A stretch of 40,037 nucleotides of DNA, from positions 9,994 through 50,030 of the forward strand of contig CAZNAH010000002.1 of the NCBI GenBank assembly GCA_964570735.1, read 5' to 3'. Source of the stretch: an uncultured Hyphomicrobiaceae bacterium. GTDB taxonomy: Bacteria > Pseudomonadota > Alphaproteobacteria > Rhizobiales > Rhodomicrobiaceae. Shown here piece by piece: positions 25,237 through 29,508 of this stretch (within the stretch, counting starts at the first letter, position 1; the number at the start of each line of letters is the position of its first letter). Under the pieces are notes generated by a model. That model saw only the letters and a list, made by a program, of their open reading frames with translations. It did no database searches and was not told the DNA's origin. Position numbers and translations under genes: made by a program.

Positions 25237-25704
25237 TTAAAAATGGCGGCCTAACGCAAGTCCGAAAACCATTGAGTCGTCATGCTCTGTGATGTCGTAG
25301 TGGAATTGCGGTGATATAGTGTAGTGATGGCCAATTTCGAATTCATAAAGTGCGCCAATTCTTGCAACAGCATATTCTGACCCATCGATGAATTCGACAC
25401 CAGGGCCCACCTGCAAGGCCAAACCTTTCCTTATATGAATGTCTGCGACCGCGAGAAGAGTGGTCGCGTCGATCTCGCCGAATGCCCGCTCGGCGACAAA
25501 GCCCATACCGATCAGATGATTGACCCGGTATTCGTAGTCCACGCCGGCTGTAAAGGCTGTCTCGTCAACCTCATCAACGTGGGTCCCGCCAAGAAGGAGA
25601 GAGACATGGTGTGTTGCTACGGTTGAGGTGGCAGCATCATTCTCCGCGCTCCCTTCTGCCAAAGCCGGCGCCTGAAAGCTTAGAAGAAGAATAAGCGAGG
25701 TCAT
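25237..25704 (-). CDS. Small secreted, beta-strand-rich protein (possible small outer-membrane beta-barrel), hypothetical
   Basis: An internal ATG at 25704 gives 155 aa. The signal peptide is MTSLILLLSFQAPALAEG, strand-like segments have alternating hydrophobicity, and the C-terminus ends in aromatic ...FGLALGRHF. The longer 308-aa ORF overlaps the haemoglobin gene and was rejected. Confidence 0.45.
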   Translation of the reverse strand: MTSLILLLSFQAPALAEGSAENDAATSTVATHHVSLLLGGTHVDEVDETAFTAGVDYEYRVNHLIGMGFVAERAFGEIDATTLLAVADIHIRKGLALQVGPGVEFIDGSEYAVARIGALYEFEIGHHYTISPQFHYDITEHDDSMVFGLALGRHF

Positions 25705-25954
25705 CAATGTGAGAGGATTAAATCGCTTCGTAGCCTGATGACGGCGCAGCTCAAACTGTCCGCCATCCGTGATTGGCGGATTATGTGACTTTTCTCCGTT
25801 GATCGGCGATGGTGCGGCATTGCTCGCACTGAAATGTACATTTCGTTTGATCATGCTGTCGATTCCGTGTCCTGAGCGGATATTTTGCAATTTTTGGCGA
25901 TTTGCCATGGAAGGCAAATCTGGAGCGGTCGCTAGCAATGGCCTTAGAGCGCCC

Positions 25955-26449
25955 TTACGGTTTAGTATGTGGCTGACGCGCTTTTGTCGCGTCGGCGGTG
26001 GTGTTCGGGCAGGCACCGCATGAACGCGGTTCCCGAGCGGAATTGTCAGTATTTTGCATGTGCCAGCCCAGAGTATCAATGCGGGCGACAAGATCAGACG
26101 CCATGGGCGAAGCAGGCACGAGTTCGTTCCAAGCCTGATGAAAACAGGCGATCCATCCTGCAATTTCTTCTTTCCCTATCGGGGCCGCCAAGTGACGTTG
26201 CCTCAATCGGGGATGGCCATGCTTTTGACGATAGAGTTGAGGGCCACCAAGCCAGCCTGACATGAATTGGAAGAGCTTCTCTTCTGCGCGCACCAACGAG
26301 GGTGGATGAATGTCGCGACAAGCCCTGGCTTCAGGCAACTCGTCCATGAGCTCATAAAAGCGGTGGCAAATAGCGCGAACAGCATCCTCTCCACCGACGC
26401 AGTTGTACGGCGATGCGTCAATGGGTTCGGATGTTGAGGTTCTTGGCAT
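25955..26449 (-). CDS. glbO: Group II truncated haemoglobin (GlbO/YjbI-like)
   Basis: YNCVGGEDAVRAICHRFYELMDE, EKLFQFMSGWLGGPQLYRQKHGHPRLRQRH and IGKEEIAGWIACF match the trHbO pattern. The RBS GGAGGA lies 7 nt upstream of the ATG at 26449. Confidence 0.8.
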   Translation of the reverse strand: MPRTSTSEPIDASPYNCVGGEDAVRAICHRFYELMDELPEARACRDIHPPSLVRAEEKLFQFMSGWLGGPQLYRQKHGHPRLRQRHLAAPIGKEEIAGWIACFHQAWNELVPASPMASDLVARIDTLGWHMQNTDNSAREPRSCGACPNTTADATKARQPHTKP

Positions 26450-26639
26450 CAATCATTCCTCCTTGGTTATTTCGCATGGCCAGTGAATTGCCGACTGATG
26501 TCTCGGCCGTCCCAGCATTAGGGAGCGTTGACGAGTTCTCGGCACATGCTTCGATAGGTACAGAATGGCTTTCAGTGGCTGTCATGGACCAAGGCCGGAA
26601 GCACCGCTGGCTGAGCGCCGAGAGCGTACGTGACCGTTT

Positions 26640-27512
26640 TCAGGACGTGGCGCTGACCAGCCACACCTTGCAGCCCAGCATAACCCCTTCGCCTGGAATA
26701 TAGTGGTGAATGAACACCTGAACGAGATCATTGCGCGCGGCGGCCAGTACAGCTTCTCCATGCGCTGCGAGTGCACGTCCGGCGGCAAGCGAAGATAGCA
26801 CGAAGTCAGCAGCCTGTTCGGGGGTGGCAGCAGGGCCACCGACTGCCTGGCGGCCCAGATATGGCGCCAAATTGACCGAACGAAATCCGCTTTCAGTCAA
26901 CACCTCGCGCAAATATTCGGTATCTTCAAAAGCAAATGGGCCAGGTGTGCGCGGCACGGCAGGGGGCACCTCGATGTGCGAGCGCACCACCCCCATTACC
27001 TCCATCATCCACGGATTGTCGCGCGGCGGCCCCCACACAGCAAGATCCATTCGTGCATCCGGACGGAGCATGGTTCTGATGTTTGCAAAGGCGGCAACCG
27101 GGACGGCAAAGAACATCGCGCCGAACCGGGAGAACAGCCGGTCAAACGGCGCTTCATCGAGGCGGACTTTAGCGGCGTCGCCGCAAACAAACCGTACGTT
27201 CGCATGCGCCAATTCTTCGGCTCTCGAGCGGGCGGCGCCAACAAGGTCCGGCGATATGTCCAATCCAAGGACTTCGCCAGATGGGGCGACGAGGCGCGCA
27301 ATCTCCAGCGAGGTCGCCCCGCCGCCGCACCCCAGATCAAGAACGCGCTCCCCGGGCTTGAAACCAGCTTGGGCCATCAGGGCGCTGCCAATCGGCGCCA
27401 GCATGCCTTCGAATCGATCGAGATTGGCGAGCCACTTTGCTCCCATTTCTCCCGACCAATCCTCGACGTGCTGGGCTTCGGCAGGACGATTGGGTGCAGC
27501 ATCATGCATCAT
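26640..27512 (-). CDS. Class I SAM-dependent methyltransferase
   Basis: Motif I is RVLDLGCGGGATS, followed by DISPDLV, FVCGDA and FDRLFSRFG. The start MMHD at 27512 lies 11 nt after the arsR-like stop. Confidence 0.85.
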   Translation of the reverse strand: MMHDAAPNRPAEAQHVEDWSGEMGAKWLANLDRFEGMLAPIGSALMAQAGFKPGERVLDLGCGGGATSLEIARLVAPSGEVLGLDISPDLVGAARSRAEELAHANVRFVCGDAAKVRLDEAPFDRLFSRFGAMFFAVPVAAFANIRTMLRPDARMDLAVWGPPRDNPWMMEVMGVVRSHIEVPPAVPRTPGPFAFEDTEYLREVLTESGFRSVNLAPYLGRQAVGGPAATPEQAADFVLSSLAAGRALAAHGEAVLAAARNDLVQVFIHHYIPGEGVMLGCKVWLVSATS

Positions 27513-27522
27513 GAAAAGCCTT

Positions 27523-27855: not shown

Positions 27856-28502
27856 CAAGCCGGCCTTTCAGGATAGCGCAGAAACCAGCTGGTGGGATTT
27901 TCAGCGGCAAAAACCTCGTCAAGACTATGGCTTGGCGGCGATATAAGTGCCTCCCCCGGCTTCCAGTTGGCAGGCACAAGCGCACCCTCGGCATCAATCG
28001 CCTGAAGCCCATCAAGAATACGCAGCATTTCAGGGACAGAACGGCCCAGATTGGCGGGGTAACAAGTCATCGCCCGGATCACGCCATTCGGGTCGATGAA
28101 AAACGTGGTTCGGACTGTGGCGCTGTCGCTGTCCTGCGATGATACCATCCCAAAAGCGCGGCCGATGACCAACGTCGGATCTTCGACGATGGGAAACCGC
28201 ACTTCGATATCGAACCGGTCTCGTATCATGCGAAGCCACGCAAAGTGCGAAAACAAGCTGTCGACCGAGAGCGCCATCAACGCACAGTCGCGCTGCTCGA
28301 AAGCAGCGGCCTCGCGCGCGAGAGCGATGAACTCGGTGGTGCAAACAGGCGTAAAGTCGGCAGGGTGCGAAAACAGGATCAGCCAGCGCTGACGATAGGC
28401 TGAAAGCCGGACCGGGCCGATTGTGCTACGCGCTTCGAAATCGGGTGCCTGGTCGCCGATCCTGAGACCGGCACAAGGTGGGTTGTCGCGAGGTTCGTTC
28501 AT
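27855..28502 (-). CDS. Peroxiredoxin, Prx6-like (1-Cys type), divergent paralogue
   Basis: FSHPADFTPVCTTEF is the peroxidatic-Cys motif, and there is a long C-terminal Prx6-type extension (ANWKPGEALISPP). 215 aa. Confidence 0.85.
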   Translation of the reverse strand: MNEPRDNPPCAGLRIGDQAPDFEARSTIGPVRLSAYRQRWLILFSHPADFTPVCTTEFIALAREAAAFEQRDCALMALSVDSLFSHFAWLRMIRDRFDIEVRFPIVEDPTLVIGRAFGMVSSQDSDSATVRTTFFIDPNGVIRAMTCYPANLGRSVPEMLRILDGLQAIDAEGALVPANWKPGEALISPPSHSLDEVFAAENPTSWFLRYPERPA

Positions 28503-28510
28503 TTCGCCCC

Positions 28511-28544
28511 TATATCACTTGACAGCAGCGATGCAAGACATATA
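28511..28544. promoter_or_regulatory. Imperfect palindrome in the divergent prx / MBL-hydrolase intergenic region (candidate ArsR-type operator)
   Basis: tatatcacttg-N12-caagacatata, with 9 of 11 positions complementary. It sits in the AT-rich 73-nt gap between the two divergent start codons. Confidence 0.3.
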
Positions 28545-28575
28545 CACGGTTTATGTAAATATTAGGAGATTTGCT

Positions 28576-29508
28576 GTGGCAAATGAAGATCAAGCACTCG
28601 CCAGCGCTGCGGCGCAGATTGAATGCGCGCTGGCGGAAAAAACGAAGCGGCCGACCATTGCCGGCTTTTTCGACGAGGCCACGAACACGGTCAGCTACGT
28701 GGTGCACGACCCCGAAACATCCGAGGCAGCTATTATCGATTCGGTGCTGGACTATGAGGCAGCGTCAGGCCGCACCTCGTACGGGTCTGCTGAGCGGGTC
28801 ATTGAATACGTTACTACAAATAATCTGAAAGTGACTTGGCTGATCGAAACCCATGCTCACGCCGATCACATCTCGGCCGCCCCCTATCTTCAGGAGAGGC
28901 TTGGCGGTAAGCTCGCCATCGGTAAGGACATCATCCGCGTGCAGGATGTGTTCGGCAAGCTCTTCAATGCGGGAACAGATTTCGAGCGCGACGGGTCGCA
29001 ATTTGATCATCTGTTTGTCGATGGAGAGAAGTTCTCGATTGGCTCTATCGAGGGGATCGCCTTGCATGTTCCGGGGCACACTCCGGCTGACATGGCGTTT
29101 ATCATCGGTGATGCCGCATTTGTCGGAGACACGATCTTCATGCCCGATTTCGGCACGGCGCGTGCCGATTTTCCTGGAGGAGATGCCCATCAACTCTTCC
29201 GGTCGATACGGCGACTGCTGTCGCTTCCGGACGGCACGCGCCTGTTCCTGTGTCACGACTACAAGGCGCCAGGACGTGACGAGTTTGCGTGGGAAACCAC
29301 CGTCGGCCAGCAACGCCGCGAAAACGTGCACGTGAAAGAGGGTGTCAGCGAGGACGAATTTGTCGCTATGCGCACCACGCGCGATGCCAAACTCGCCATG
29401 CCCAATTTGATCATGCCATCTGTGCAGGTCAATATCCGCGGCGGCCGCCTGCCTGAGCCCGAAGACAATGGCGTCAGCTACATTAAAATCCCGGTCAACG
29501 CGGTATGA
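28576..29508 (+). CDS. MBL-fold metallohydrolase of the Blh / persulfide dioxygenase type
   Basis: ETHAHADHISAAPYL (HxHxDH), HVPGHTPADMAF and LFLCHDY are present. A GTG start at 28576 lies 7 nt after AGGAG. The stop overlaps the next ATG (ATGA). Confidence 0.85.
   Translation: MANEDQALASAAAQIECALAEKTKRPTIAGFFDEATNTVSYVVHDPETSEAAIIDSVLDYEAASGRTSYGSAERVIEYVTTNNLKVTWLIETHAHADHISAAPYLQERLGGKLAIGKDIIRVQDVFGKLFNAGTDFERDGSQFDHLFVDGEKFSIGSIEGIALHVPGHTPADMAFIIGDAAFVGDTIFMPDFGTARADFPGGDAHQLFRSIRRLLSLPDGTRLFLCHDYKAPGRDEFAWETTVGQQRRENVHVKEGVSEDEFVAMRTTRDAKLAMPNLIMPSVQVNIRGGRLPEPEDNGVSYIKIPVNAV

Follow-up and report, generated by a model that had tools for sequence, protein, structure and literature searches.

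A BigR/SqrR-related regulator gene with a strictly linked peroxiredoxin gene at an alphaproteobacterial sulfide-oxidation locus: a candidate peroxiredoxin-partnered repressor

Gene organization of the locus

The window, which is the whole stretch of DNA analyzed here, comprises 40,037 nucleotides (nt) of contig CAZNAH010000002.1 (positions 9,994 to 50,030 of the forward strand; assembly GCA_964570735.1) from an uncultured Hyphomicrobiaceae bacterium. It contains two minus-strand genes, prx and arsR, which encode a peroxiredoxin (Prx) and an ArsR-family regulator, respectively (Table 1). The regulator appears, from its sequence and gene context, to belong to a widespread and apparently undescribed class of BigR-like repressors that are usually free of cysteine. 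The arsR start codon ATG and the prx stop codon TGA use one common A, generating a TGATG overlap. A preliminary description of this DNA, made from the sequence alone, recognized a minus-strand chain of prx, arsR, methyltransferase, group II truncated haemoglobin, and small-protein genes with this overlap, and the coordinates as well as the Pfam and structure matches agree with it. The gap between arsR and the methyltransferase gene was reported there as 11 nt, one more than its actual length.

The regulator gene is linked to blh/persulfide dioxygenase (PDO), yeeE, DUF442, and sqr genes, which lie in a divergent operon. The first gene of this operon encodes a metallo-beta-lactamase (MBL)-fold PDO that matches the NCBIfam Blh model with 395 bits at profile positions 133-422, corresponding to the C-terminal domain of Blh. 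Its start codon is most likely GTG at 28576, which is preceded by a GGAGA Shine-Dalgarno sequence and gives a protein of 310 amino acids (aa), the same length as the homologues. With this start, the divergent gap is 73 nt long, and its G+C content (GC) is 39.7%, against 61.6% for the whole window. The 73-nt AT-rich gap facing the MBL/YeeE/DUF442/SQR operon, noticed in the preliminary description, was thereby recovered.

Table 1. Features of the window around the prx-arsR pair. TM, transmembrane; SAM, S-adenosylmethionine; OMP, outer membrane protein.
Feature	Positions	Strand	Remarks
Crp/Fnr-family regulator	23572-24312	+	past the downstream end of the minus-strand chain
Calcineurin-like phosphoesterase	22313-23488	+	past the downstream end of the minus-strand chain
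Small secreted protein	25237-25704	-	signal-like N-terminus; OMP beta-barrel match weak only
Group II truncated haemoglobin	25955-26452	-	closest solved relatives 2XYK and M. tuberculosis HbO 1NGK
SAM-dependent methyltransferase	26640-27512	-	PF13649 and related families; 10 nt downstream of arsR
arsR	27523-27855	-	110 aa; ArsR-family winged-helix, BigR/SqrR-like core; PF01022
C-terminal tail HGVASFARMS	27526-27555	-	instance of the conserved motif after a variable Pro/Ala-rich linker
Cys23 codon	27787-27789	-	equivalent of BigR Cys42 by alignment
prx	27855-28502	-	215 aa; AhpC-TSA and 1-cysPrx_C; Prx6 subfamily, ArsR-coupled clade
Divergent control region	28503-28575	.	73 nt, 39.7% GC
Candidate operator ACATA-N9-TATGT	28538-28556	.	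inverted repeat conserved across loci
MBL-fold PDO	28576-29508	+	PF00753; first gene of the divergent operon
YeeE/YedE-type half-transporter	29505-29954	+	within 29505-30572; PF04143
YgaP-like TM protein	29941-30171	+	PF11127
DUF6691 half	30156-30572	+	PF20398
DUF442/TIGR01244 sulfurtransferase	30572-30991	+	PF04273; TIGR01244 at 128.6 bits
Sulfide:quinone oxidoreductase (SQR)-like flavoprotein	31016-32242	+	PF07992
SulP/STAS anion transporter	32232-34010	+	PF00916, PF01740; last conserved gene of the divergent operon
244-aa protein	34021-34755	+	signal-like N-terminus
Second Prx, canonical Prx6 type	35144-35773	+
cydA	35909-37363	+	cytochrome bd oxidase
cydB	37360-38358	+	cytochrome bd oxidase

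A BigR-like regulator without a conserved cysteine

The regulator matches PF01022 with 45.7 bits, and the top match among PDB structures is BigR (3PQJ, E-value 2.6e-17). The NCBIfam BigR model NF040642 gives 76.9 bits, which is under its cut-off of 155. An AlphaFold2 (AF2) model based on a 64-sequence alignment shows winged helix-turn-helix (wHTH) elements extending to residue 86; the mean predicted local distance difference test (pLDDT) values of 10-residue blocks are 86-98 through residue 90, and 89-98 for residues 1-80. Profile hidden Markov models restricted to the core (residues 5-86) score the window protein at 119.8 versus 118.2 bits and do not separate it from BigR-like proteins. The distinction of the class rests on the C-terminal region and the gene context rather than on the DNA-binding core.

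The sole cysteine of the regulator is Cys23 in the sequence RWRILCAV, which aligns with Cys42, the first cysteine of BigR. No cysteine is present at the position equivalent to BigR Cys108 in alpha-5 (the L[YF]C motif); the alignment with BigR ends about three residues before the expected position of Cys108, and its extrapolation puts the site around Pro89 in LAQLMPAP. The initial classification as a single-cysteine relative of BigR/SqrR without the second sensing cysteine is thus upheld.

Cys23 is a rarity among the relatives of the regulator. The 120 closest homologues, which were retrieved from a collection of 5.8 billion proteins and show 55-86% identity, originate from Erythrobacter, Porphyrobacter, or Sphingomonadales where the source is named, and 104 of them have no cysteine. 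The position of Cys23 is usually occupied by Thr, Ser, or Ala. Related loci of the same layout, 84 in total, were collected from 80 species genomes and four further contigs with their genes re-derived, and the regulators of 76 are Cys-free. In a 36-sequence family alignment, the position of the alpha-2 cysteine is hypervariable, with T, S, A, or E as the usual residue. Among the 84 loci, the alpha-2 cysteine was found only in Erythrobacter sp. CTOTU7343 (L001 and L005, the same locus represented twice) and Blastomonas (L010). P0001-P0003, the sequences most similar to the window protein, have it too, and so does, independently of these, the metagenome contig L087. About one-sixth of the representative clusters of tail-bearing regulators (see below) keep it, which is above the chance expectation. 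Since Cys23 is not conserved, a thiol relay via this residue, as suggested initially, cannot be the conserved mechanism. Cys23 is best read as an ancestral relic of dithiol BigR-type forebears.

The preliminary description had considered that the regulator might fall into a non-thiol subgroup of ArsR proteins. This is largely the case. Metal sensing was rejected, as neither an alpha-3 cysteine nor alpha-5 His/Asp/Glu ligands are visible in the regulator sequence.

A conserved C-terminal tail

Following the wHTH core, a Pro/Ala-rich linker of variable length leads to a conserved C-terminal tail with the consensus G-[VA]-A-x-F-A-[RK]-[LMI]-x-COOH. Among 105 sequences, neither the Phe nor the two Ala ever vary, and the Phe is the fifth-last residue in 91 of them. 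The corresponding F106 and A107 are invariant in the 36-sequence family alignment as well. The window protein ends with ...GVASFARMS-COOH, with the motif within about five residues of the end. The tail is kept across regulator cores that are only ~40% identical.

A scan of 1.8 billion representative proteins divided the relatives into two classes. One is tail-bearing and mostly lacks the alpha-2 cysteine, and the other corresponds to classic BigR/SqrR proteins with the alpha-2 cysteine and the C-terminal L[YF]C motif. In the AF2 model, the tail is unstructured, the block-mean pLDDT values being 61 and 50 for residues 91-110. A disordered tail after a confidently modeled wHTH core is as expected from the signature of a tethered short linear motif or docking peptide.

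Linkage of prx and arsR

In all 84 related loci, prx immediately precedes arsR on the same strand. In 83 of them the stop codon of prx and the start codon of arsR overlap, as ATGA in 55 loci and as TGATG in 28. An overlap or a spacing of 4 nt or less is also observed in 29 of the 30 loci of a further set. Divergent PDO-YeeE-DUF6691-(DUF442)-SQR-SulP genes are present in the 84 loci wherever the contig extends to them, and the SQR orthologues, 74-90% identical, occupy the same position in nearly all of the loci having the gene. The functional tie between the regulator and Prx that had been proposed from the window alone is supported by this conserved adjacency and overlap. The pairing might have turned out to be absent from related genomes, and the survey suggested at that time clearly revealed the opposite.

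Eighty metagenomic loci were found with a profile built from the tail class, and the co-occurrence of the tail with prx was counted over all loci together. A prx gene is located directly upstream of each of the 103 distinct tail-bearing regulators and of none of the 35 tail-less BigR/SqrR-like regulators (32 classic proteins with the alpha-2 cysteine and L[YF]C, and three variants). Fisher's test of this association gives p ~1e-31, with the sample not being phylogenetically independent. A regulator with a degenerate tail (AADSARLS) also has prx.

The neighbors of the pair are variable. In three metagenomic loci (L114, L136, and L157), prx-arsR is divergent to trxC, encoding the Zn-ribbon thioredoxin 2, and is flanked by genes for CydDC-like ABC exporters instead of sulfide-oxidation genes. 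In the locus L169, prx-arsR is found alone among housekeeping genes. In Sphingobium, the pair faces an operon of PDO, YeeE, a DUF442-SQR fusion, and TauE. Because prx-arsR persists when the other neighbors change, the pair is the unit, with the sulfide operon among its several cargoes.

The ArsR-coupled peroxiredoxin

The Prx encoded by the window matches PF00578 and PF10417 (29.8 bits versus 21.1 for the latter), and the NCBIfam model PRK13189 (NF009668) gives 218.9 bits against a cut-off of 211. Its closest solved relative is AhpC2 from Aquifex (5OVQ), with 50-60% identity. The protein was first described as a 1-Cys peroxiredoxin; the assignment to the Prx6 subfamily stands, and the protein has four cysteines. 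The peroxidatic cysteine is Cys54 in PVCTTE. No cysteine is found past residue 147, so the C-terminal resolving cysteine of the AhpC/Prx1 type is missing.

The alignments used to assess conservation comprised 79-104 sequences. Each of the 104 distinct ArsR-coupled Prx proteins aligned has Cys54 and Cys73, as do seven added relatives, including those of the hybrids described below. Cys147, seen in 98 of the 104, is a conserved residue among the Sphingomonadales members. Throughout the coupled clade, the C-terminus shows a W-[FY]-x-[RK] motif, W-F-x-R in the window, which is a better marker of the clade than Cys73. The use of Cys73 as a diagnostic residue for ArsR-coupled Prx was abandoned, because it occurs in about half of the paralogue set used for comparison. 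The second Prx of the window shows ~41-46% identity to the ArsR-coupled Prx and lacks Cys73. The W-F-x-R at the C-terminus of Prx weakly resembles N-F-A-R in the regulator tail, and this resemblance is noted as a lead only.

Candidate operator and promoters

Across 76 aligned loci, the intergenic block with the highest conservation includes the inverted repeat ACATA-N9-TATGT. The pattern CATA-N9-11-TATG is present in 71% of the upstream regions compared (109 distinct ones), against 0.6% of shuffled sequences, and recognizable operator-like variants are present in distant members. The repeat emerged solely from the cross-locus alignment; a search with a 6-nt seed detected no inverted repeat in 28490-28590. 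A palindrome at 28511-28544 had been nominated as the binding site in the preliminary description, and it mainly covers two opposed -35-like hexamers, the conserved repeat being located instead at 28538-28556.

A perfect TTGACA was recognized by eye on the plus strand ~16 nt upstream of the repeat, which occupies the place expected for the -10 element of the MBL promoter. A TTGCAT hexamer, -35-like for prx and likewise recognized by eye, abuts the repeat. A consensus promoter scan reported no sigma-70-like site in the divergent gap.

The -10-like hexamer of prx on the minus strand (in the region 28509-28536) is TATAGG in the window and TATGAG in most relatives, and it ends ~6 nt before the ATG. 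No clear Shine-Dalgarno sequence is visible before prx in most loci. The prx mRNA may be leaderless.

The subfamily is defined here by three features: the tail motif, an overlapping prx gene upstream, and an ACATA/TATGT-type repeat upstream of prx. All three are found in the window.

Dithiol regulators with the tail and the history of the class

Some representative regulators combine both cysteines of BigR with the tail. A search seeded with one such hybrid yielded 120 relatives, 89 of which have the alpha-2 cysteine, the [LI]FC motif, and the tail. An overlapping prx is found upstream in all four hybrids that were looked up, which are from two Brevundimonas contigs, Phyllobacterium, and Pseudomonas aeruginosa (L171, L173, L175, and L177). 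The P. aeruginosa hybrid contig also contains transposase genes. A close relative without the tail, also from Brevundimonas, has no prx.

The hybrids look like intermediates between classic BigR/SqrR proteins and the Cys-free class. The simplest history suggested by the sequences is that a dithiol BigR-type repressor gained a Prx partner and the tail, and that most Sphingomonadales lost the cysteines later; the window protein would be an intermediate in which the alpha-2 cysteine persists.

One tail-less dithiol regulator, P0399 (L180/L181, 5001-5415), has an overlapping prx. Just downstream of this regulator, the +1 frame reads ...SDRSARLD..., which is possibly a frameshifted remnant of the tail.

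Other genes around the pair

The methyltransferase, haemoglobin, and secreted protein had been considered as co-regulated outputs of the regulator. This is not borne out by the related loci: a methyltransferase gene follows arsR in only two of the 84 (L011 and L031), and the haemoglobin and small-protein genes are absent from all of them. These three genes are, judging from this distribution, local or lineage-specific additions rather than outputs of the conserved system. With 10 nt between them, arsR and the methyltransferase gene are probably co-transcribed in this locus. A consensus scan detected no terminator-like site between the two genes and no convincing terminator in the minus-strand chain. 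Gaps of 187 nt and 250 nt precede the haemoglobin and small-protein genes, respectively. For the small protein, which had been described as beta-rich with a signal peptide, the signal-like N-terminus is supported, and the beta structure is represented only by the weak beta-barrel match.

The window consists of two compositional domains, with GC of ~0.65-0.67 in the part from 1 to 18 kb and ~0.55-0.61 in that from 19 to 40 kb. GC is lowest (0.518) at 25-26 kb, where the haemoglobin and small-protein genes lie, which is compatible with their being later insertions. In the locus L001, a Metallophos gene related to the window phosphoesterase comes after arsR.

In the divergent operon, the YgaP-like gene lies between the two YeeE-type halves, an arrangement shared with a minority of related loci (e.g., L015, L030, L037, and L054). 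The 244-aa protein encoded between SulP and the second Prx has no Pfam match. A Prx paralogue is present just past SulP in many Erythrobacteraceae loci, and the prx-arsR locus of P. aeruginosa also adjoins cydAB-cydP. The sulfide operon together with the second prx and cydAB looks like a sulfide-tolerance island.

A possible mechanism and its alternatives

The observations above, all of them comparative, are best accommodated by a Prx-partnered repressor, in which Prx senses the signal and passes it non-covalently through the tail of the repressor. A dimer of the repressor would bind ACATA-N9-TATGT in the 73-nt control region, and there it would shut off both its own prx-arsR transcript and the divergent PDO/YeeE/DUF442/SQR/SulP operon. 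As the class is normally Cys-free, the perception of the signal would be independent of thiols of the repressor, and any coupling between Prx and the regulator must be non-covalent. The co-translated Prx could be the redox and sulfur sensor, with Cys54 reacting with peroxide and then with sulfide or persulfide. H2S can persulfidate the sulfenylated peroxidatic cysteine of 1-Cys Prx, according to work cited in PMC9995734, so Prx could integrate oxygen-derived and sulfide signals. A change in the conformation or the oligomeric state of Prx would be read by the repressor through docking of the tail. Depending on the direction of the switch, reduced Prx could be a co-repressor, or else oxidized or persulfidated Prx could be an anti-repressor. 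Translational coupling would keep Prx and the repressor stoichiometric and would close a feedback loop. This proposal is estimated to have about an even chance of being right.

A more specific version is put forward only tentatively, as something rather less than probable. A bacterial signaling pair of the Prx6 type would use a dedicated Prx that senses peroxide, sulfane sulfur, or both and controls a Cys-free BigR-like repressor non-covalently, capturing its tail in a redox-dependent manner, the tail possibly mimicking the W-F-x-R of Prx. The dithiol, single-Cys, and Cys-free forms would then represent a stepwise hand-over of sensing to Prx.

Several observations weigh against the Prx-partnered repressor. 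The tail-less regulator P0399 retains prx, so that the two genes can be paired without a tail. The association between the tail and Prx may represent one or a few evolutionary events, the statistics ignore phylogeny, and the named members outside the hybrid group are all from Sphingomonadales. Cys73 is not unique to the coupled clade. In Rhodobacter capsulatus, the Prx rcc00528 belongs to the SqrR regulon and is induced more than 10-fold, and its deletion leaves the sulfide induction of sqr unaltered (PMC9995734); a Prx can thus be a mere output. The R. capsulatus Prx, P0399, and the phylogenetic dependence of the statistics favor an alternative in which Prx is only a co-regulated enzyme, the linkage is an inherited operon structure, and the regulator senses in another way, for example through a small ligand that binds either to the tail or at the dimer interface. 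In that case, the tail could equally serve another purpose, such as contact with DNA or RNA polymerase or regulated proteolysis. The frequent occurrence of the canonical Prx6 paralogue at the far end of the same operon fits such a need for enzymatic peroxidase activity. However, the regulator has no recognizable sensor residues, and the tail, which is strongly selected across the diverged cores, was never seen without prx. The pair also stays together though every other neighbor changes, with the stop/start overlap in ~95% of loci. An output-only Prx is considered somewhat unlikely and is the main alternative.

The relay suggested in the preliminary description would operate within the lineage of the window: Prx would hand an oxidizing equivalent or sulfane sulfur to Cys23, and the resulting mixed disulfide or persulfide would free the repressor from DNA, in the manner of an Orp1-Yap1 relay. 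The alignment of Cys23 with BigR Cys42, its retention in P0001-P0003, Blastomonas, and L087, and the above-chance frequency of the alpha-2 cysteine among tail-bearing clusters are in its favor. A covalent relay is chemically plausible in the dithiol relatives with the tail, and Prx is always co-encoded. On the other hand, the same locus, operator, and Prx accompany Cys-free regulators in most related loci, and hypervariability prevails at this position elsewhere. The BigR residue that is more exposed and becomes persulfidated is Cys108 and not Cys42 (PMC5823870), and the equivalent of Cys108 is absent here. This relay is improbable even for the single lineage. Still less probable is a signal-blind autorepressor, that is, a decayed BigR that does no more than fix basal expression of prx and the sulfide operon, while another regulator encoded elsewhere provides induction. 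The loss of the sensing cysteines and the Crp/Fnr-type regulator nearby would suit it. The conservation of the regulator, tail, and operator over at least three orders (Sphingomonadales, Caulobacterales, and Rhizobiales) and in the P. aeruginosa contig with transposase genes argues instead for a maintained specific function.

Significance and comparison with known systems

To our knowledge, sensing in every characterized regulator of bacterial sulfide or persulfide detoxification (BigR, SqrR, CstR, FisR, and others) depends on cysteines of the regulator itself. The existence of a large, conserved Cys-free class over the same genes would mean that there is another way to make transcription respond to sulfide. 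If Prx is the sensor, the pair would be the first bacterial counterpart of the eukaryotic Prx relays as far as the literature searched shows, and it would need no transfer of thiol chemistry to the factor. Experimentally, the system is tractable, as it consists of two small soluble proteins and a 19-bp operator in culturable hosts (Erythrobacter, Sphingobium, and Brevundimonas), and natural variants cover the dithiol, single-Cys, and Cys-free states. It also gives a warning for annotation: "BigR-like" regulators beside sqr or pdo are not all thiol switches.

BigR and SqrR are persulfide-sensing ArsR-family repressors of Xylella/Agrobacterium and Rhodobacter, respectively. The regulator of the window shares with them the winged-helix core and the adjacent or divergent blh/PDO, yeeE, DUF442, and sqr genes. 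It differs in the absence of the alpha-5 cysteine, in the alpha-2 cysteine that is not conserved in the subfamily, and in its score under the cut-off of the BigR model. The class has in addition the linker, the A-x-F-A-[RK]-hydrophobic tail, and the obligate upstream prx; we know of neither such a tail nor translational coupling to prx in SqrR. In the window, the likely operator coincides with the -10 region of the promoter to be controlled, and the binding site reported for BigR is likewise the -10 region of its own operon (PMC5823870).

The relationship of the regulator to its operon partner resembles that in SdpR-SdpI of Bacillus and SrnR-SrnQ of Streptomyces. SdpR and SrnR are ArsR-type proteins without a known effector site of their own, and a partner encoded in the same operon perceives the signal; SdpI is a membrane immunity protein and SrnQ is a Ni-binding co-repressor. 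The SrnR structure (7P6F) and the SdpR model are among the structure and profile matches of the window regulator. Neither partner is a Prx, and the C-terminal motif of the window type is not known from these systems. OhrR, of the MarR family, senses through its own cysteine. OhrR-Ohr and the Prx of the SqrR regulon are similar to the present pair in that a repressor responding to redox state or sulfur has a thiol peroxidase gene as its neighbor or its target. The R. capsulatus Prx differs in being dispensable for signaling (PMC9995734).

The full-text literature searched, which did not cover subscription-only articles, yielded no account of an ArsR regulator that is coupled to a Prx or bears such a tail. 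Within the same coverage, no bacterial relay from a Prx to a regulator was found either, in agreement with the initial statement that none is established for ArsR-family sulfide regulators.

The eukaryotic relays from a peroxidase to a transcription factor, such as Orp1/Gpx3-Yap1, Tsa1, and Prx2-STAT3, rely on thiol-disulfide exchange with cysteines that are conserved in the factor. They are similar to the prx-arsR pair in that the transcription factor has a thiol peroxidase as its partner and does not act as the primary sensor of the oxidant, and they differ in that the class of the window factor has no conserved acceptor cysteine. What appears to be new in comparison with all these systems is a BigR/SqrR-related repressor with an obligate Prx partner.

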